Of a stretch of DNA of 64,000 nt, positions 2,097 through 64,000 are shown in pieces. This DNA comes from Nanobdellota archaeon. GTDB taxonomy: Archaea; Nanobdellota; Nanobdellia; Woesearchaeales; JBHPFW01. Both the position numbers and the translations under genes were made by a program. The stretch lies in assembly GCA_042571645.1 (NCBI GenBank), contig JBHPFW010000003.1, positions 24,898-88,897 of the forward strand. Direction: 5' to 3'. The notes beneath the pieces are model-generated. The model saw nothing but the letters and a program-made list of their open reading frames with translations. It searched no databases and was not told where the DNA came from. Position 1 is the stretch's first letter. Every line of letters starts with the position of its first letter.

Positions 2097-2210
2097 CCCG
2101 AGTGTTTTTCAGAGCGGAGTAGCAGGATATGAGCGTTAAACGACCTCGAAAAACACGAGGCCGAGCATTGCCTGAAAGGCAAGCGGAGGAGTCGCGTAGG
2201 GGCTTTTTCT
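2097..2210. ncRNA. GC-rich hairpin-rich segment of unclassified function (candidate structured RNA/leader) upstream of the ORF at 2297
   Basis: Local GC is well above the roughly 33% background. gtgtttttc (2103-2111) pairs with gaaaaacac (2148-2156). A short GAAA-loop hairpin ttgcc-tgaaa-ggcaa lies at 2168-2182. The segment ends in the outer inverted-repeat arm ggggctttttct (2199-2210). Confidence 0.3.
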
Positions 2211-2235
2211 AATTATTACAAAGGCTTTGGCGAAG
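2199..2235. repeat. left arms of two nested inverted repeats: outer ggggctttttct 2199-2210, inner ggctttggcgaag 2223-2235
   Basis: Perfect reverse complements are present at 3023-3034 (agaaaaagcccc) and 2973-2985 (cttcgccaaagcc). Confidence 0.7.
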
Positions 2236-2296
2236 CTACTTATAAAGAGTAAAGAAATGGAAAAGTTAATAAGCATATATTGAATACCCTTCAAAA

Positions 2297-2941
2297 ATGG
2301 ATTGGGAAAAATTAATTCCGGACTTTTTGAAGAGAGCAAAACAAAAACAATTAACTGATTTTGAAATAGAAGTGATAATGCCTTACGAACTAGAAAAGTT
2401 AGTAAAAGATTATAAGGATAGAAAAAATTCTCGGACTGCTGAATATGATCGCGTATTAGACTCAAATTTATTAGTTCCTCTTCATGGAGGATATGATACC
2501 GGAGAAAAAGTTGCAGAAAAAGCCAAAGAACTTGAAAGAATGTTAGTTCTTTATCAAAATTTTGAAAGACTTTTGAAACAGCAAGGTGACTCAGCTGTAG
2601 AAAGATATGGTGCTCACAAAGCAAAAGAATATACAGAAGGAGTTGCTTACTTAACATGGGATGCCCAATTCAAAATTAGTGGTGTTACTTCACTCAGACA
2701 AGTATGGCTACCAGAAAACATAAAAGAAAAGTTGGGTTCTGATTTTGAAGGAACTGTATTAATCCATCATGATACAGAAAATATAATCACTGGAGGCAGA
2801 CCAGAAGCTTATCACAAATTAGAATCCTCAGTTATCGCACTTCCTCAAACTTTAACAACAGAAAGAAGTGAACTTAGGAAACAAATGATTGCAGTAGCAC
2901 AACAAAAAGCAATAAATTACGCCGCAGGATTAGGTGGTTGA
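2297..2941 (+). CDS. hypothetical protein (214 aa) bracketed by nested inverted repeats
   Basis: Complete ORF with no recognisable catalytic motif. Codon composition is slightly GC-richer than the neighbouring genes. Confidence 0.55.
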   Translation: MDWEKLIPDFLKRAKQKQLTDFEIEVIMPYELEKLVKDYKDRKNSRTAEYDRVLDSNLLVPLHGGYDTGEKVAEKAKELERMLVLYQNFERLLKQQGDSAVERYGAHKAKEYTEGVAYLTWDAQFKISGVTSLRQVWLPENIKEKLGSDFEGTVLIHHDTENIITGGRPEAYHKLESSVIALPQTLTTERSELRKQMIAVAQQKAINYAAGLGG

Positions 2942-14383: not shown

Positions 14384-14658
14384 GGACAGGCACACCCACT
14401 GATGGACAGAAAATGAATACAAAGGTTGAACCTTGACTTTTTCTCATTTCCGCAACCCTGCAAGCACCGATCAACTCAGTTAACGCTGCTCCATTCCTGG
14501 TCTGACGTGGTTCCTGAAAAGATTAGTCGAGCAGGACAGAAAATCATTGGCCAAGCCAAGACCTAGTACTCAAAATCTGCCTCTCAGCAAGCTTCACTCC
14601 AACCATAAAGCTCGTTTGTTGTTACAAGAGAGAGCTATCCTCCCGAGCTAGCCTGTCC
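14384..14658 (-). ncRNA. ffs: signal recognition particle RNA (7S/SRP RNA)
   Basis: GC-rich island. The minus-strand segment GUCAGACCAGGAAUGGAGCAGCG matches the conserved SRP domain IV consensus (GGUCAGGUCCGGAAGGAAGCAGC). The 5' GGACAGGC pairs with the 3' GCCUGUCC to form the terminal helix. Length of about 275 nt fits an archaeal SRP RNA. Confidence 0.7.
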
Positions 14659-16519: not shown

Positions 16520-18190
16520 ATGCTTAAAACCTTAAAAAAAGCCAAGTTGGGGGATTTGGTGCCTATATACAAGTCTGTAAGGGCTCCAAAAGACGCAGTA
16601 GAGTATTTTGCACGGATTTCTGATTATGGCAGACAGCAGAATAGTATTTTGCTTGAGTCAGCAGATATTGTTCCTAAATACGGCAGATTCAGCTTAGGAA
16701 GTGCAGATCCTTGTTTAAGAATAACTGGAAATCAGGATGAATTTGAAATCTTAGCACTGAATGACACTGGCAAGAGATTTCTCAAATTCATAAGAGATGA
16801 TTTTGGTTTTGTGAGAAACAAAAAAATCACGCCATCAAAGATATCTGGCAAACTGAGAGCATCTGCAAAATCAAAACAGTCAGATGAGCAGGAAAGATTA
16901 AAACAACGCACTCACGCAGATATTCTCAGAACAATCGCATTCAAATTCAATCCAATATCAAAACCATTTATGGCATATGGCGGGTTGTTTGGCGCAATAT
17001 CTTATGACTTTATTGATCAGTTTGAAAAACTCCCGAAGAATAGAGATGACATAACAAAGGATCCGGACTATGAAATGTATTTCTTGGACAACTTATTCAT
17101 CATTGACCACAAAAAAGGAAAGATGAATATAATTGCAAATGCTTTGATAACAACAGATGATGAACAAAAGAAAAAAGAAATTCTGAAAGAATGCCAGAAA
17201 AAAATAAGCAATTACACAAAATCAGTAAAAAAATCTTTGCCAAAAAAAGGAAAATTCGAGAAAGCAGAGATTAAGACATCAACTGATACCTCAAAAGAAG
17301 AATATGAAGCAATAGTGGAAAAAATGAAGGAACACATAGTTCTTGGAGATATATTCCAGGTAGTTCCATCAAGGACAATAATCTCGACATATAACAATGA
17401 GCCTTTAGATATTTATACAACCTTAAGAGCACTAAATCCTTCGCCATACATGTTTTATATGAATATTAAATCGGGGATATTGCTTGGAGCTTCTCCTGAG
17501 ATGGCATTAAGAGTTGAAGGATCAGGGATAAAAAGAGATTCAGAAAAAACAGTTGAAATAAGACCTATTGCAGGAACAAAACCAAGAGGTTTCAACACCA
17601 AAGGAGAAATCGATCCTGATGCAGACTCTAGATATGAAACAGAACTAAAGATAGACACTAAAGAATTAGCAGAACATACAATGCTTGTGGATTTGGCTAG
17701 AAATGATATTGCAAAAGTCTCAAAACCAGGTACTAGAGTTGTTAATGAGCCGTTTGTGGTCGAGAAATATTCCCACGTACAACATTTAGTAAGTAATGTT
17801 TCAGGAAAACTGAGTGATGATCTGGATGCACTGCATGCTTATCTTGCAACAATGAACATGGGCACATTAACTGGCGCTCCTAAAATTGAAGCAATGAAAC
17901 TGATAAGAAAATCCGAAAAAAACAAACGAGGCTTTTATGGCGGAAGTGTTGGTTATTTAACTCCCTCTGGAGACATGGATACAACAATAGTGATAAGGTC
18001 AATGCAAATTAAAGGGAAAAAAGCATATGTCAGGGCAGGTGCGGGGATTGTTTATGACAGTGTTGCACCAAATGAATTCATGGAAACTGAAAAGAAAACA
18101 AGATCTTGCTTAGTTGCAATAGAAAATGCTTCAAAAGGAAAAAAGAAAGCAAGTAAGCCATCATTAAAGAAAAGAGGTGGCAGAAAATGA
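16520..18190 (+). CDS. trpE: anthranilate synthase component I
   Basis: LVDLARNDIAKVS, GTLTGAPKIEAM, and GAGIVYDS motifs. Confidence 0.95.
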   Translation: MLKTLKKAKLGDLVPIYKSVRAPKDAVEYFARISDYGRQQNSILLESADIVPKYGRFSLGSADPCLRITGNQDEFEILALNDTGKRFLKFIRDDFGFVRNKKITPSKISGKLRASAKSKQSDEQERLKQRTHADILRTIAFKFNPISKPFMAYGGLFGAISYDFIDQFEKLPKNRDDITKDPDYEMYFLDNLFIIDHKKGKMNIIANALITTDDEQKKKEILKECQKKISNYTKSVKKSLPKKGKFEKAEIKTSTDTSKEEYEAIVEKMKEHIVLGDIFQVVPSRTIISTYNNEPLDIYTTLRALNPSPYMFYMNIKSGILLGASPEMALRVEGSGIKRDSEKTVEIRPIAGTKPRGFNTKGEIDPDADSRYETELKIDTKELAEHTMLVDLARNDIAKVSKPGTRVVNEPFVVEKYSHVQHLVSNVSGKLSDDLDALHAYLATMNMGTLTGAPKIEAMKLIRKSEKNKRGFYGGSVGYLTPSGDMDTTIVIRSMQIKGKKAYVRAGAGIVYDSVAPNEFMETEKKTRSCLVAIENASKGKKKASKPSLKKRGGRK

Positions 18191-28617: not shown

Positions 28618-28751
28618 GTATGTGTATAGCATCTTCAAAACTCTTGATGAGTATGTTGTAAGGATCTGCATCCCCGGATGGGGCGACCCCCCGCGACGAT
28701 CAGGATGCAGAGAATGAAAGGAGTTTTGACCTTATGATGCTATGCACATAC
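28618..28751. ncRNA. unclassified highly structured element (134-nt multi-layer hairpin with GC-rich core)
   Basis: Outer stem gtatgtgtatagcatc (28618-28633) pairs with gatgctatgcacatac (28736-28751): 16 bp with one G-U. Second stem caaaactc (28636-43) / gagttttg (28721-28). Third stem tctgcatcc (28665-73) / ggatgcaga (28703-11). The GC-rich core spans 28674-28702. UGAUGA occurs at 28645-50. Confidence 0.4.
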
Positions 28752-28797
28752 AAAAAATAACAAAATATTTAAGTTAAATTCACGATTTTTATTTAAA

Positions 28798-48808: not shown

Positions 48809-48943
48809 TGCGTCGGCCGGGAATTTCGTGAATATTTGCCTATGCAATATATTATTCGAACCCGGATCAACGGCTTGGAAGGCCGCTATACTTTATGGCA
48901 ATTCCTACAAATTAGGCAATTGTAGCCATTGTACTACCGACGC
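48809..48943 (-). tRNA. tRNA-Gly (anticodon UCC) with two apparent introns, one in the D-loop and one at T-loop 60/61
   Basis: Minus strand: acceptor GCGUCGG/CCGACGC with A73, U8A9, D-stem GUAC/GUAU, anticodon stem GCGGC/GCCGU with loop CUUCCAA, variable UGAU, T-arm CCGGG-UUCGAAU-[32 nt]-CCCGG. About 30 nt are inserted in the D-loop. The mature length would be 73 nt. Confidence 0.6.
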
Positions 48944-48976
48944 ATGAACTCAAGGAAAGACAAGTCATTTATAAAG

Positions 48977-49816
48977 TTAATGCCCTTTTCTCATAAACTT
49001 TTTGTATCTTAATAAGTGCTTTGTATTTGCAGGGCTTATTTCAGAAAAGAATTTGCCGCTTTGATTATATAAATAGAGGTTTTTACCGCTAATAGAAGGT
49101 CTGAAGCCTAAATTCTCAAAACCCTTCCTGACCTCTTCCAAAAAGGCTTTATCCCTGCTTATTATGGATACTACGCTCTCATTTCTTCGTAAATAAATGC
49201 TCCCATCAGTATCAAACAAGCCCCTTAGATAGCTTTGTAGAAATTTCTTATTTAGTTTTATCTTTTTAGGGATATGCAATTTTCTCATCTTCTTGCCTAG
49301 TGGCAACTTATATCTCCCAGTTAAAAACTCAGACAATTCTTTTGAGTTAATAACGCATCTTAGATTATTGTTTGGTTTATATTTCTTAATCTTAACATTA
49401 ACGTTGAATAAGTTTCTGAACAAAAGAGATACTCTTCCTAGAATGTAATCTTTATCTGCCATTAAATGACCGCTAACAACTATTTCATAATTGTATTTAG
49501 AAATGTGACCGTCGCCTGCTAGTATTCCTATCAACTCAGCTAAATGTTCATTAAGAGATGGTTTTTTGATCGTCTCAACTTTATTTCGAATTTCAACATA
49601 ATTGTTATAACTTTTCCTCAGTCTTGAAATATTACAAAGCTTTTCATAATTCTCTTTTGGAATCTTAGATGAACCGTCAAGATAGACAAAAATCATACTT
49701 CTGCTAATTCCCAAGAAAGAGGCAAGTTTTTCCCAGCTAAGACTGGTGCGTTCTTTAACTGATCTCATAAATCTAGTTTGCTCTTTTTTGTTGAAGTTTA
49801 TATATTTCATTTTCAC
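48977..49816 (-). CDS. LAGLIDADG homing endonuclease (double-motif, N-terminal HTH)
   Basis: Two LAGLIDADG-type motifs (LIGILAGDGHISKY and LRGLFDTDGSIYL). N-terminal HTH (SWEKLASFLGISRSMIFVYL). Confidence 0.8.
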   Translation of the reverse strand: MKMKYINFNKKEQTRFMRSVKERTSLSWEKLASFLGISRSMIFVYLDGSSKIPKENYEKLCNISRLRKSYNNYVEIRNKVETIKKPSLNEHLAELIGILAGDGHISKYNYEIVVSGHLMADKDYILGRVSLLFRNLFNVNVKIKKYKPNNNLRCVINSKELSEFLTGRYKLPLGKKMRKLHIPKKIKLNKKFLQSYLRGLFDTDGSIYLRRNESVVSIISRDKAFLEEVRKGFENLGFRPSISGKNLYLYNQSGKFFSEISPANTKHLLRYKKFMRKGH

Positions 49817-60428: not shown

Positions 60429-61607
60429 TTAAATGGTTTTATAGAACTTCCTTTGAAACTTATCTTTGTGCGATAATATGATTTTATTCTTTTTTAATAA
60501 GCGCTTTAGTACATCCCTTACTGTTGAAGTATTAATTCCTAGTTCTCGGGTGATTTCTGAGTTATAACTACTTTCTTTTAATCTTATAAACTTAAATATC
60601 TTAATCTCGTTTTCTAAGGGATAAGTTCTTAAAGAACTAATTCTGACTATTTTCTTCAGTGAATTAGCCTTTCTTAATCCTTTTTTTGTAAAAGAATAAC
60701 CCTTAGATGATAAAGCTAGATAATTCATATCCTTCAAAATTGTAAGACGATAATGAATAGCACGTTTAGAAAGATAAGGAAATAAGCTATTTACATGTTT
60801 TGTAGAAAAATAAGTTCTATTAATATCCAAAACTTTCACTAATGTTATTTCCCAAGCTTTTGATTTAAAATTTTCTACAATTCTTTTTAATCTTCTCTGA
60901 TGCGATTTTAGAGCAAATCCAATTTGTTCATAGAACTTTGTTACATTTTTAATATCAGCAAAATATAAATAATATTTCCATCCATAATTCTTAATATAAT
61001 ATTTGTAAATCTTAGGTTTGATTCCAAATTTTTTCTTCAATAGAAGTTCTAACTCATCTAAATAAGTTTTATCACAACTATGAAATCTCACTTCAGTTCC
61101 TTTTTTTGGATCGTAAACAGAACCCTCCATTGCAAATGCATATCTTAGATATTCTCTTATTACAGAAATAGGAGAGTACCAAATCCACTGAGGTATTTTT
61201 GCTGATTCATCTGATTTATGGATGTCCAAACAATGATAAATAAAGGATGTAAAAGCCTTTGCTGGATACGCAACTATAGGGGTACCACTATTCTTATGAA
61301 TTGAAAAATTACCATTCAGACCAAATTGTTTTTTGATTATATGAGAGAATTCTTTTACTTTGGATTTATCTTTTTTCTGTGAAAATATACAAGAATTGAG
61401 ATTCTTTTCTATAGAACCATCTAGAATCATTGCAGAAATTTTAGCAAGATCTTCATCTAATATCAAAGGCGACTTAATCAAGAAAGGTTTCGCTTTTGAA
61501 TTTTTTAAATAAACTTTATTATCGTCTATTCTAAAAATATCAGGGAGTTCTTCTTTTGTAATTTGGAAATATTTTTTATCTAAATTGGTATAATTATTTA
61601 ATTTCAT
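60429..61607 (-). CDS. LAGLIDADG-like (DOD) endonuclease-fold protein with C-terminal winged-helix domains
   Basis: Degenerate motif pair (ISAMILDGSIEKN and LRYAFAMEGSVYD). C-terminal MarR-like wHTH (ITRELGINTSTVRDVLKRL). Located immediately downstream of a tRNA gene. Confidence 0.4.
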   Translation of the reverse strand: MKLNNYTNLDKKYFQITKEELPDIFRIDDNKVYLKNSKAKPFLIKSPLILDEDLAKISAMILDGSIEKNLNSCIFSQKKDKSKVKEFSHIIKKQFGLNGNFSIHKNSGTPIVAYPAKAFTSFIYHCLDIHKSDESAKIPQWIWYSPISVIREYLRYAFAMEGSVYDPKKGTEVRFHSCDKTYLDELELLLKKKFGIKPKIYKYYIKNYGWKYYLYFADIKNVTKFYEQIGFALKSHQRRLKRIVENFKSKAWEITLVKVLDINRTYFSTKHVNSLFPYLSKRAIHYRLTILKDMNYLALSSKGYSFTKKGLRKANSLKKIVRISSLRTYPLENEIKIFKFIRLKESSYNSEITRELGINTSTVRDVLKRLLKKNKIILSHKDKFQRKFYKTI

Positions 61608-61851
61608 TTTTTATCACCTCTAAGATTTTCATAAATCTAAATCTTAGAGTTCGCTAAAAAGTCCATATGTAAAACTCACAAAAAATCTTTAAAAAGACCT
61701 TTTGACATTTTGATGGAAAGATTTTTGTAAAGAGTTCTACAGACTTTTTTAAGAAAATGATAGAATAGGTTATTAATATCAGTACCGACCATAAATGTCC
61801 AGTGCTAATAAAAAGAAAAAACCAGAAAGGGATAACCCTTTCCAGTTCGCA

Positions 61852-62022
61852 TAGCGGAGAGTGGACTTTCTCACTGACGTTCGAAGCATTGCCTTAAACG
61901 TCAATATTTGAACCACTGACCTCCGGGTTTCGCCTAGAGCACATATACTCTTATATGAGCCTTCCGCACCCATTAGAAGTTCTAATGAATTCGACGGGCA
62001 CTCCTGGCTGCCCTACTCCGCT
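61852..62022 (-). tRNA. intron-containing tRNA (anticodon unresolved) with an insertion at T-loop 60/61
   Basis: Minus strand: acceptor AGCGGAG/CUCCGCU with A73, U8A9, D-stem GGGC/GCCC, D-loop AGCCAGGAGU, T-arm AGUGG-UUCAAAU-[41 nt]-CCACU. About 55 extra nt lie between the D- and T-arms. Confidence 0.5.
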
Positions 62023-62124
62023 ATAATATTGAGGACTTCTGGCTTATTTATAAATGTTACCCCTTCTAATCTTTTTAAAAAGAGAAACTAATTTAAATCA
62101 AATCCTTACTCTGGTGCTTTATAC

Positions 62125-62294
62125 GCCCTGGTCGCATAGTCTGGCTATTGCGGTAATCCATTAAGGCATCTTGATGGACTGTTAGATTGCTAAGTGCATA
62201 TTGTGCTTACAAAATACAATAGCCACAAAGATCTACTGTCCCTAGGACACGTGAGTTCAAATATCAGAAATGATTGAAAGTCTCACCCAGGGCG
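62125..62294 (+). tRNA. intron-containing tRNA (anticodon unresolved) with a 19-nt insertion at T-loop 60/61; its 3' end overlaps the integrase start
   Basis: Acceptor GCCCUGG/CCAGGGC with G73, D-arm GCAU-AGUCUGGCUA-UUGC, T-arm GUGAG-UUCAAAU-[atcagaaatgattgaaagt]-CUCAC. About 76 extra nt lie in the anticodon region. Confidence 0.55.
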
Positions 62295-63121
62295 TTTTTA
62301 TTTCTAAGGCAGATGTTAATATTAAGAATAATTTTGAAGAGTTTGTCGTCTATATTTCTAAGAAAAACTATTCGCAAAGACACTTTACAAAGTTGAAGAG
62401 TTGTGTTAAAAAATTGAGTTATTATACACACTTTTTCAGTTATAAAGAGCTATTGAAGATTAGAGATAAATTGTATTCTGACCAATATTATAAGGCTCTG
62501 AGAGCACTTTGTAATTTCTTTGAAGAGAAGTATCTTGAGAATCCAGCAGTGCTTGTAGATCTTGAGAGGATTAGAAAGAACTTCAAGAGACCTAAAGCAA
62601 CTCCAGATATTTACACTCCTTCGGATGAGCAGTTAGTAGAGACTTTAGCAAAGCTCAAGGCTCTTAATAAAAAGTATTATGAGTTCTACGTAGCCTTGAT
62701 GTTTTCAGGTGTTAGAATCAAAGAAATGGCCTATTATATCAATTCTGACAAGGACTTTAAAACCATTGAAAATGGCAATTATCACAAGGTATTATTGAAT
62801 TATAAAAGACATTGTAAAAATGTATTTTTCCTATATTTTCCAAAGGGTTTTGAACTTTCTGAAGGAGTTATTGTTGAGAACCTCAGTAGATTTCTCACGA
62901 GACATCCCGAGATTATAAGACCTAAGTATATTAGGAACTGGTTTTATTCTAAGTGTCTGGATTTAGGAGTTCCCTCAGCGATAGCAGATTTCTTTCAAGG
63001 AAGAACTCCTATTTCTGTAGGAGACAGACATTATCTTGATCGTGAGAGAATGGCTGATAAGTGTTATTCTGAGAAGCTAAATCCTTATTTAGAAGAAAAG
63101 TTTATAAAAATGAATAGGTAA
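62270..63121 (+). CDS. tyrosine recombinase / phage-type integrase
   Basis: Box I-like ALMFSGVRIKEM, K...HxxR region (HKVLLNYKRH), and C-terminal GRTPISVGDRHYLDRER carrying the catalytic Tyr. The annotated ATG lies inside the tRNA T-loop insertion. Confidence 0.75.
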   Translation: MIESLTQGVFISKADVNIKNNFEEFVVYISKKNYSQRHFTKLKSCVKKLSYYTHFFSYKELLKIRDKLYSDQYYKALRALCNFFEEKYLENPAVLVDLERIRKNFKRPKATPDIYTPSDEQLVETLAKLKALNKKYYEFYVALMFSGVRIKEMAYYINSDKDFKTIENGNYHKVLLNYKRHCKNVFFLYFPKGFELSEGVIVENLSRFLTRHPEIIRPKYIRNWFYSKCLDLGVPSAIADFFQGRTPISVGDRHYLDRERMADKCYSEKLNPYLEEKFIKMNR

Positions 63122-63130
63122 TTATACCTC

Positions 63131-63643
63131 ATGGTTTATGTGAATTTGAAAAAAGAGGAAAAAGAACAGTTAATCAAAACATGGGTTATTCTTGCTAAAA
63201 GGTATGAGAGATTTAATTATAAACCTACTGAAGCAACAGAAGAACAAATAGAGTACATTATCGGTTTATCAAAATCTCTTGATAGAAGAGATGCTGCCAC
63301 ACTCATAACTTTGTTACAAATACTTAACAAGGAAAGGGGAGAAGTAGAAACAGAAATGAAAAAACCAACTCCTAGCAAGAAAAAGAAGAAAAAGAAGAAA
63401 AAAAAGAAAAAAAAGAAAAAAAAGAAAAAGAGGGAAAAGAGGGAAAAGAATCCATCAAGCTATCAGGAGAGACTGGCTGAAATAAAGGCAAAATATCCCA
63501 ATGCATATGAACCTTGGACAGATGAAGCAAACAACGAATTAAAGAAACTATGTATTGAAGGAAAATCTGTTAAAGAACTTTGCCAAATCTTCAAAAGACA
63601 ACCTGGCAGCATCAGATCAAGATTAAAAAAGCTTATTATATAA
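63131..63643 (+). CDS. small HTH protein with an internal poly-Lys tract
   Basis: C-terminal sigma-70 region-4/LuxR-like HTH (KSVKELCQIFKRQPGSIRSRLKKL). A 23-residue Lys run is encoded by the (aagaaaaag)n repeat. Confidence 0.5.
   Translation: MVYVNLKKEEKEQLIKTWVILAKRYERFNYKPTEATEEQIEYIIGLSKSLDRRDAATLITLLQILNKERGEVETEMKKPTPSKKKKKKKKKKKKKKKKKKREKREKNPSSYQERLAEIKAKYPNAYEPWTDEANNELKKLCIEGKSVKELCQIFKRQPGSIRSRLKKLII
63377..63450. repeat. simple-sequence repeat (AAGAAAAAG)n / (AGGGAAAAG)2
   Basis: Direct reading. Slippage-prone homopurine tract inside the ORF 63131-63643. Confidence 0.85.
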
Positions 63644-63685
63644 ACGAGTAAAACAAAACAATTAAAGGTTGGATGTGTAATATAA

Positions 63686-64000
63686 TGGATTTTGATAAAT
63701 TTTTTGAAGAGTTTAAACAACACATGTATGACACAGATATGGAAAAGGTTCTATATGATGATATGGATGAAAAACCTAACAAAGAAGATGTTAACGTTAT
63801 AGAAATAGGAACTTTCACCTATTTGTTTAATGTTGCAATGTATAATCTTGCAAAAGCTAATAACTTATACTTAACACCCGAAAATGCAACTGGCAGAGGT
63901 GGTTATTCAGATATTCTTTTAACAAGAAAAAATGGCGAGATTTTATTTGAGATTGAACATGAAAATGATGGATTGGCAAGATCAAAAGATCCTGAAACTA
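63686..64000 (+). CDS. hypothetical protein, partial (runs off the window end)
   Basis: Open frame from ATG 63686 to the window end (MDFDKFFEEFKQHMYD...). Confidence 0.35.

Follow-up and report, generated by a model that had tools for sequence, protein, structure and literature searches.

In a 64-kb stretch of DNA from a Nanobdellota archaeon (hereafter the window, meaning the whole of the stretch that was analysed), two divergent tRNA genes, one for initiator tRNA-Met(CAU) and one for tRNA-Ser(GCU), are each interrupted by three introns, and an open reading frame for a tyrosine integrase begins within the 3′ part of tRNA-Ser. The locus is probably best explained as a pair of intron-split tRNA genes together with an element, equipped with an integrase of the suicidal type, that integrated into the 3′ end of tRNA-Ser. 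The inserts in the T-loops are archaeal bulge-helix-bulge (BHB) introns and not integration scars. Both the tRNAs and the integrase are known kinds of feature; the host is new. The window is archaeal and has a G+C content of 34.5 %, and its annotation of open reading frames (ORFs) covered ~47 to 64 kb. Comparisons were made with loci in other genomes (L001-L025), which were reached through neighbouring or homologous proteins.

Standard tools do not recognize these tRNA genes. ARAGORN reports no tRNA anywhere in the 64-kb window, and Rfam returns none at gathering score over the window, nor at E<=10 over 61700-62400; with lowered thresholds, ARAGORN gives 18 weak calls, none of which was treated as a gene. 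A custom scan, which required a T-stem of 5 bp and an acceptor stem of 7 bp and let the TTCRAN T-loop contain an insert, yielded exactly three G+C-rich candidates, at 62125-62294 (plus strand), 61852-62022 (minus strand) and 48809-48943 (minus strand), whose T-loop inserts measure 19, 41 and 32 nt, respectively, the sizes given in an original prediction made on this DNA. After splicing in silico, ARAGORN identifies the three as tRNA-Ser(gct) of 84 nt, tRNA-Met(cat) of 75 nt and tRNA-Gly(tcc) of 72 nt, with canonical cloverleafs whose stems are all perfect once the inserts are removed. The view that the two divergent loci are intron-rich tRNA genes is borne out by these cloverleafs, and the large inserts suspected in their anticodon regions are real, measuring 29 and 38 nt in tRNA-Ser and 30 and 25 nt in tRNAi-Met.

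The initiator tRNA-Met(CAU) gene (61852-62022, minus strand) is 171 nt long, contains three introns and is identified by the scan, by ARAGORN after splicing and by orthologues in L020 and L022. Its mature 75-nt form has A1:U72 and G29-31:C39-41, the anticodon stem being TCGGG/CCCGG with three G:C pairs beside the loop CTCATAA. The tRNA-Ser(GCU) gene (62125-62294, plus strand), identified by the scan and by ARAGORN after splicing, is 170 nt long, also with three introns, and its mature 84-nt form displays the acceptor stem GCCCTGG/CCAGGGC, discriminator G73, a long variable arm (GTCC-CTA-GGAC) and, with the inserts taken out, the anticodon arm GTAGA-TTGCTAA-TCTAC. The divergent spacer between them (62023-62124) contains two TATA-like boxes, namely TTTATAAA at 62047-62054 (-25 to -32 of tRNAi-Met) and TTTAAAT at 62092-62098 (-27 to -33 of tRNA-Ser), both of which, as read from the sequence, would act as promoters. 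Directly 3′ of tRNAi-Met is a terminator-like hairpin with a T-run (61819-61848, minus strand). The third hidden gene, for tRNA-Gly(UCC) (48809-48943, minus strand), has introns at 20/21 (48893-48923) and 59/60 (48823-48854).

In both tRNAi-Met and tRNA-Ser, the introns occupy positions 29/30, 37/38 and 59/60. A BHB motif was defined as an outer helix, a 4-bp central helix, a 3-nt bulge on each strand and an inner helix; the central helix pairs the intron bases -6 to -3, counted from the 3′ cut, with a block of four exon bases that two further bases separate from the 5′ cut. For the in-register test of this pairing, the junctions were fixed by the cloverleaf and the null was 20000 shuffled introns for each case. 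Of the eight introns that the three tRNAs contain, five form all four pairs of the central helix in register, a result that the shuffles reach in 17-367 of 20000 trials (0.09-1.8 %). Across both splice sites, the motif is strict in those five of eight, near-strict at the 59/60 intron of tRNAi-Met, and relaxed or absent at the two 37/38 introns; the BHB is the minimum-energy fold or close to it. Only the in-register test carries weight, because a loose BHB motif is common in A+T-rich DNA, with 170 loosely defined BHB-like motifs in the window versus ~130 in shuffled sequence.

The 59/60 intron of tRNA-Ser (62262-62280, plus strand), which is 19 nt long (TATCAGAAATGATTGAAAG), forms a perfect hBHBh′ motif (29 of 20000 shuffles). 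Its layout is GTGAG-TTCA-AAT-ATCA-GAAA-TGAT-TGAA-AGT-CTCAC, that is, an outer helix GTGAG/CTCAC, a central helix TTCA/TGAA, the bulges AAT and AGT, and an inner helix ATCA/TGAT closed by a GAAA loop. The 29/30 intron of the same gene (62156-62184, plus strand; 29 nt) has a BHB with the central helix GCGG/CTGT, including two G.U pairs, and a 9-bp inner helix (31 of 20000 shuffles), and the 38-nt intron at 37/38 (62193-62230, plus strand) has a relaxed BHB in which three of the four central pairs form. For tRNAi-Met, the 30-nt intron at 29/30 (61962-61991, minus strand) is bounded by a strict BHB with the central helix CCGT/GCGG and a 10-bp inner helix (17 of 20000 shuffles). Its 41-nt intron at 59/60 (61866-61906, minus strand) has a near-BHB that coincides with the minimum-energy fold, consisting of the outer helix AGTGG/CCACT, a central TTC/GAA plus an A.A mismatch, 3-nt bulges and an 11-bp inner helix. 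The 25-nt intron at 37/38 (61929-61953, minus strand) shows no convincing BHB; it was assigned from the cloverleaf, and its junction could move by one A. A different 25-nt BHB-like excision in tRNAi-Met, which drops the CAT and leaves the loop CGCGAAA, was rejected, as the body of the tRNA is of the initiator type.

Two further properties of the genes concern composition and covariation: the exons are 54-61 % G+C versus 25-41 % for the introns, and the central helix in the T-loop shows a compensatory change, from TTCA/TGAA in tRNA-Ser to TTCG/CGAA in tRNA-Gly. A T-loop insertion point common to all three tRNAs of the window had been predicted between nucleotides 60 and 61. The shared T-loop site stands, and the exact position does not; a T is present at both junctions, so 59/60 and 60/61 are indistinguishable by sequence alone, and the BHB geometry gives the cut as 59/60. 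As a separate observation, the 29/30 introns of tRNA-Ser and tRNAi-Met are alike in length, hairpin layout and part of their sequence (..TCCATTA.. versus ..TTCATTA.., and ..GATGGA.. versus ..TAATGGG..), a likeness that could reflect either a common origin by intron transposition or convergence. Each pre-tRNA would be transcribed from its own TATA box, the endonuclease EndA would cleave each 3-nt bulge of the BHB after its second nucleotide, and an RtcB-type ligase would join the exons into normal tRNAs of 75 and 84 nt. By analogy with published work (PMC5829648), a broad-specificity splicing endonuclease is expected in this genome.

Orthologues in other DPANN genomes retain the exons while the inserts vary. 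In L020, tRNAi-Met is interrupted three times (29/30, 37/38 and ~43/44), and that of L022 (~2195-2390, plus strand) apparently has five inserts, at 29/30, 37/38, ~43/44, 53/54 and 59/60; the last of these is a 16-nt intron with the same TTCA/TGAA helix as in the tRNA-Ser of the window. When spliced, the tRNAi-Met sequences of the window, L020 and L022 are collinear and their stems covary, the T-stem, for example, reading AGTGG/CCACT, GGAGG/CCTCC and GATGG/CCATC. The anticodon loop of the L022 gene is CCCATAA, with C33 in place of U33. Among the tRNA-Gly(UCC) genes, the one in L018 is intron-free, the one in L016 has inserts in the D-loop and the anticodon region, and the one in L014 has inserts in the D-loop and at 53/54. 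No orthologue of tRNA-Ser(GCU) was found among the relatives. Positions 20/21, 29/30, 53/54 and 59/60 are on a published list of non-canonical intron sites (PMC4090602), and the tRNAs of DPANN archaea have been described as heavily disrupted and as escaping prediction tools (PMC5829648). The original prediction allowed that the T-loop insert next to the integrase might be an integration scar. This is not supported, since the insert is a textbook BHB intron, since the same site is split in tRNAs that have no integrase beside them, and since no other integrase is present in the window. It had likewise been left between a lineage-specific intron position and a signature of T-loop-targeting elements. 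As a lineage-typical intron site the 59/60 insertion holds up, and the second idea falls with tRNA-Gly and tRNAi-Met, which have the insertion and no integrase next to them, and with the L022 gene, which is split at this position as well.

The ORF that emerges from tRNA-Ser (62270-63121, plus strand; 283 aa) belongs to the SSV-type (suicidal) tyrosine integrases and, by analogy with its relatives, is most likely the C-terminal half, Int(C), located at the left attachment site (attL) of an integrated element. It matches PF16795 "Archaeal phage integrase" at 7.8e-28, a family that is the hallmark of suicidal integrases, whose attachment site for integration (attP) lies inside their own gene (PMC8371274). 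There are also matches to PHROG 5127, covering profile positions 131-348 of 355 only, and to the catalytic-domain structures of the SSV1 integrase (3UXU, 3VCF and 4DKS, ~2.5e-13), with which ORF residues 112-267 align. The SGVR, YIRNW, QGR and HY motifs line up with those of SSV1 integrase, and the PF16795 catalytic domain contains the conserved Arg and the catalytic Tyr. The ORF is identical to NCBI MFC1690816.1, "integrase [Nanoarchaeota archaeon]", which is encoded on an 89.8-kb contig. It overlaps the last 25 nt of tRNA-Ser, in the way that an Int(C) abuts its att site at a tRNA target. The ATG (62270-62272) is one of the codons within the 19-nt insert (62262-62280). Its reading frame opens at 62255, directly behind a TGA in the 5′ strand of the T-stem, and crosses the intron, the 3′ exon and the tRNA T-run. 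That a tyrosine integrase ORF begins within the tRNA was read correctly from the start, given the PF16795 match and the ATG in the T-loop insert. That this ATG is the start of the integrase proper is not supported, as most homologous ORFs next to tRNAs do without a start codon and those of relatives continue from an N-terminal part, Int(N), ~8 kb away. Relative to the rebuilt integrases described below, the ORF lacks ~62 N-terminal residues and aligns from ~residue 63; its intronic ATG is probably an incidental by-product of the junction rather than a real start.

In L001-L005, L007 and L008, homologues with 40-54 % identity adjoin the 3′ ends of various tRNAs, in either orientation. Homologous ORFs occupy such a place at a tRNA 3′ end in L006 and L010 too, and most of the ORFs next to tRNAs have no start codon. 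In L003, an 18-nt repeat of the 3′ end of tRNA-Thr occurs 7.8 kb away, and joining the two copies adds 65 codons that lead back to an ATG. In L001, the N-terminal exon lies ~8 kb downstream and is in frame across GAGGAGGCTT, and L010 has the same split arrangement with its parts ~8 kb apart. The integrases rebuilt from L003, L001 and L010 are 342-345 aa long, stop-free, 47-50 % identical to the window integrase, and have a common N-terminus (MPRPTK..KKVRVNITLDKSVY). Thus, in all three of these loci, attP is situated inside int, and Int(N) and Int(C) are joined across att; the att repeats of the relatives are 10-18 nt long and sit at the extreme 3′ end of the tRNA. The Int(N) exons themselves (L001 17886-18062, L003 17593-17778 and L010 10434-10595) share the N-terminus KKVRVNITLDKSVYKNLK...INQLLK, which looks like a ribbon-helix-helix DNA-binding motif. 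Scans of genomes and metagenomes for the integrase found relatives only, and viral contigs scanned with the integrase protein, a protein alignment and the att sequence gave nothing. Two side observations touch on these loci. In L004/L005 (5384-5511, 9924-10018 and 15654-15741), a multi-intron tRNA has its 3′ end repeated 4.5 kb downstream, directly in front of an Int(C), and an 83-nt upstream segment is repeated 5.7 kb further on, an arrangement that looks like tandem or rearranged integrated elements. Also, the 10-mer TGAAAGTCTC spans the intron/3′-exon junction of the window tRNA-Ser (62274-62283) and is found again in L001 (~18062-18090), where Int(N) meets attR, the right attachment site; the ..ESL.. 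that it encodes in each case directly precedes the residues that come from att.

Judged by the repeats of 10-18 nt at the tRNA 3′ ends of the relatives, the 3′ end of tRNA-Ser is most likely attL, as originally suggested, and the DNA to its right is most likely an integrated element that leaves the window. The candidate attL core (62281-62299, plus strand) comprises the 3′ exon of tRNA-Ser, 14 nt long, and the T-run behind it, its extent being estimated from the att repeats of L001, L003 and L010. Neither the window nor the loci compared contain a further copy of the tRNA-Ser or tRNAi-Met 3′ end; TCTCACCCAGGGCG is the sequence on the tRNA-Ser side that would be expected as a direct repeat at attR. 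The two readings of the junction, attL for the tRNA 3′ end and intron for the 19-nt insert, most likely both hold, on different bases, because the relatives' att sites of 10-18 nt lie at the 3′ end, for which the 14-nt 3′ exon and the T-run suffice. In the proposed course of events, an element of ~8 kb with an SSV-type suicidal integrase would have recombined with the 3′ end of tRNA-Ser and, as attP lies within int, integration would have split the gene. The catalytic Int(C) half (62270-63121) would have stayed beside the tRNA, whose sequence leads into its reading frame, and Int(N) (~62 aa) with attR would lie ~6 kb past 64000, near the window-equivalent position 70 kb. Downstream of the integrase, the element would include a gene for a 170-aa protein with a C-terminal helix-turn-helix (HTH) and a poly-Lys run (63131-63643, plus strand; phrog_323 at 1.6e-6), in which a 9-nt repeat, AAGAAAAAG, present in 8.2 copies at 63377-63450 (plus strand), encodes ~20 residues of poly-Lys, as well as an ORF that leaves the window (63685-64000, plus strand) and has no family match.

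Several points weigh against this combined explanation. The two introns at 37/38, the canonical position, have no significant BHB in the shuffle test, and their junctions are set by the cloverleaf only. Splicing of the window tRNAs in vivo is a prediction from sequence and fold. The window ORF, unlike most of its relatives, has an in-frame ATG, and a 283-aa protein could be translated from it. No homologues of the cargo genes were found in the elements of the relatives whose loci were compared. The Int(N) and attR of this particular element are placed beyond 64000 by analogy.

Three other explanations were weighed. The in-frame ATG, the lack of internal stops and the catalytic residues aligned with SSV1 integrase would suit an integrase that is complete as it stands, i.e. 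a 283-aa enzyme starting within the intron, either domesticated or of a non-partitioning type with its att beside the gene. We consider this unlikely, for such an enzyme would be missing an N-terminal domain of ~62 aa that is conserved in the three rebuilt relatives and in the PHROG profile; moreover, relatives with 47-54 % identity lie beside different tRNAs, most of them without a start codon of their own, and the T5 run of the tRNA (GTTTTT) falls within the first 30 nt of the ORF. Less credible still is a reading of the loci as decayed pseudogenes or as fortuitous resemblances to tRNA, with random indels for inserts, to which we give hardly any weight. It can appeal to the failure of every standard tool to recognize these tRNAs and to the abundance of loose BHB-like motifs (170 versus ~130 in shuffles), but splicing leaves flawless stems, the central helices pair in register, the stems of the orthologues covary, an initiator tRNA is essential, and both a TATA box and a T-run terminator accompany each gene.

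Between these two in plausibility, and improbable in our judgement, is a model in which the element itself brought the 19-nt insert, its attP having contained the 3′ part of an intron-containing tRNA and so having served as an intron vector once recombination took place on the upstream side of that part, as proposed by Sugahara et al. 2012 (PMC3293823; cited in PMC8371274). The integrase frame is indeed open through the entire insert, L001 has TGAAAGTCTC again where its Int(N) meets attR, and the model is a published one. Against it, the att sites of the relatives span only 10-18 nt at the extreme 3′ end of the tRNA, introns occur at the same position without an adjacent integrase in tRNA-Gly and tRNAi-Met, and also in the tRNAi-Met of L022, and a perfect RNA motif with a GNRA loop would be hard to keep under a simultaneous coding constraint. 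Should the att site include intron sequence, with ATCAGAAATGATTGAAAG present in attR, the locus would be a case of this model (PMC3293823). In the Caldiarchaeum subterraneum case on which that study was based, there was likewise an integrase-bearing element at an intron-containing tRNA gene; the comparison there was between alleles with and without the intron (PMC3293823), whereas here the same intron position occurs in tRNAs that are free of any element.

The genes that adjoin the tRNA/integrase locus include those for SMC and RNase HII. Next to tRNAi-Met is a gene (60429-61607, minus strand) for a 392-aa protein, MFC1690815.1 at NCBI, which has two LAGLIDADG motifs and a C-terminal winged helix, with PF14528 matching at 7e-11; the motifs, ..AMILDGS.. 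and ..FAMEGS.., each contain an acidic residue, as in homing endonucleases. This family has 62 further matches, ~56 of them near-full-length at 41-61 % identity. The order tRNAi-Met, 392-aa-family gene, RNase HII recurs in the window, L020 (2168-3715) and L022 (2195-3670), hence in at least three DPANN genomes, and synteny of the ~390-aa family with tRNAi-Met and RNase HII was seen in two of the three other genomes sampled; a more distant homologue in L024/L025 has no tRNA upstream. The distribution of the family is not sporadic or mobile, its members being conserved over their full length and syntenic. The left flank is therefore core chromosome and not, as the original prediction had it, part of a mobile hotspot, and the notion that the LAGLIDADG gene belongs to the integrated element was rejected on the same conserved synteny. 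The protein resembles WhiA and free-standing LAGLIDADG proteins in having two motifs and an HTH/winged-helix domain. It differs from WhiA in being archaeal, in having the winged HTH at its C-terminus and in scoring 16.5 versus a WhiA cut-off of 44.1 bits, and it differs from a sporadic homing endonuclease in belonging to a family that is conserved at full length and syntenic.

A second LAGLIDADG gene (48977-49816, minus strand), encoding an HTH and a double LAGLIDADG in ~280 aa, is located 33 nt upstream of tRNA-Gly(UCC). Its family has ~78 near-full-length homologues (35-58 % identity), and in four of four genomes sampled by way of the protein a member directly precedes tRNA-Gly(UCC) in the same orientation (window 48809-49816, L014 2501-3520, L016 2501-3542 and L018 2501-3399); the intron content of tRNA-Gly(UCC) differs in each of these four, ranging from none to two. 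A speculative extension, to which we assign a low probability, is that the two LAGLIDADG families are homing endonucleases targeting tRNA genes, or descendants thereof, that are tied to the unusually fast turnover of tRNA introns, or that the att of the suicidal element reaches the 59/60 intron. If so, introns might split and protect a recognition site or be copied between tRNA genes during break repair, and an att reaching the 59/60 intron would mean that the element carries the intron between genomes.

Elsewhere in the window, the sole RNA gene recovered by standard tools is the archaeal signal recognition particle RNA (14384-14658, minus strand; Rfam RF01857, 126.9 bits). At ~28618-28752 (plus strand), a G+C-rich intergenic element of ~135 nt contains an inner helix of 9 bp, and its ends pair in a terminal stem of 16 bp (GTATGTGTATAGCATC...GATGCTATGCACATAC). 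Rfam gives nothing for it at E<=1, and it may be a structured RNA that has escaped annotation.

With respect to known systems, the introns described here resemble those of the multi-intron tRNA genes of Thermoproteales, Nanoarchaeum, ARMAN and other DPANN archaea, in that they are short, A+T-rich, flanked by BHB motifs and as many as three or more per gene. They differ in that a 59/60 intron is present in all three tRNAs of a 64-kb stretch, in that an initiator tRNA gene has three predicted introns here and five in L022, and in that the weakest motif is found in the introns at the canonical position. The integrase shares with the SSV1-type enzymes of SSV1, pTN3 and pT26-2 the PF16795 domain, the choice of a tRNA 3′ end as target and an Int(C) that abuts the tRNA, and its relatives in L003, L001 and L010 also share an attP within int and the resulting split into int(N) and int(C) (PMC8371274, PMC7253208). 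Departures from that type are the shortness of the relatives' att repeats (10-18 nt) and a target tRNA whose intron lies 14 nt from the 3′ end, so that the Int(C) frame begins in the intron. The hosts covered in reviews of such integrases are mainly hyperthermophiles and a few Methanosarcinales, with DPANN hosts not mentioned (PMC8371274, PMC7253208), whereas the present host is a low-G+C member of the DPANN (Nanoarchaeota).

These data indicate that the self-splitting integration system of the SSV type also operates in low-G+C DPANN genomes. Within 64 kb, three tRNAs, among them the essential initiator, were missed by ARAGORN and Rfam; unless a BHB-aware search is used, both the number of tRNAs and the completeness of such DPANN genomes will be underestimated, a caution about annotation already voiced by Kaneta et al. 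2018 (PMC5829648). In the comparison of orthologues, positions 20/21, 29/30, 43/44, 53/54 and 59/60 provide concrete cases of introns being rapidly gained and lost. Finally, with a candidate att site 14 nt from an intron, the tRNA-Ser locus offers a natural test of intron movement by integrating elements.

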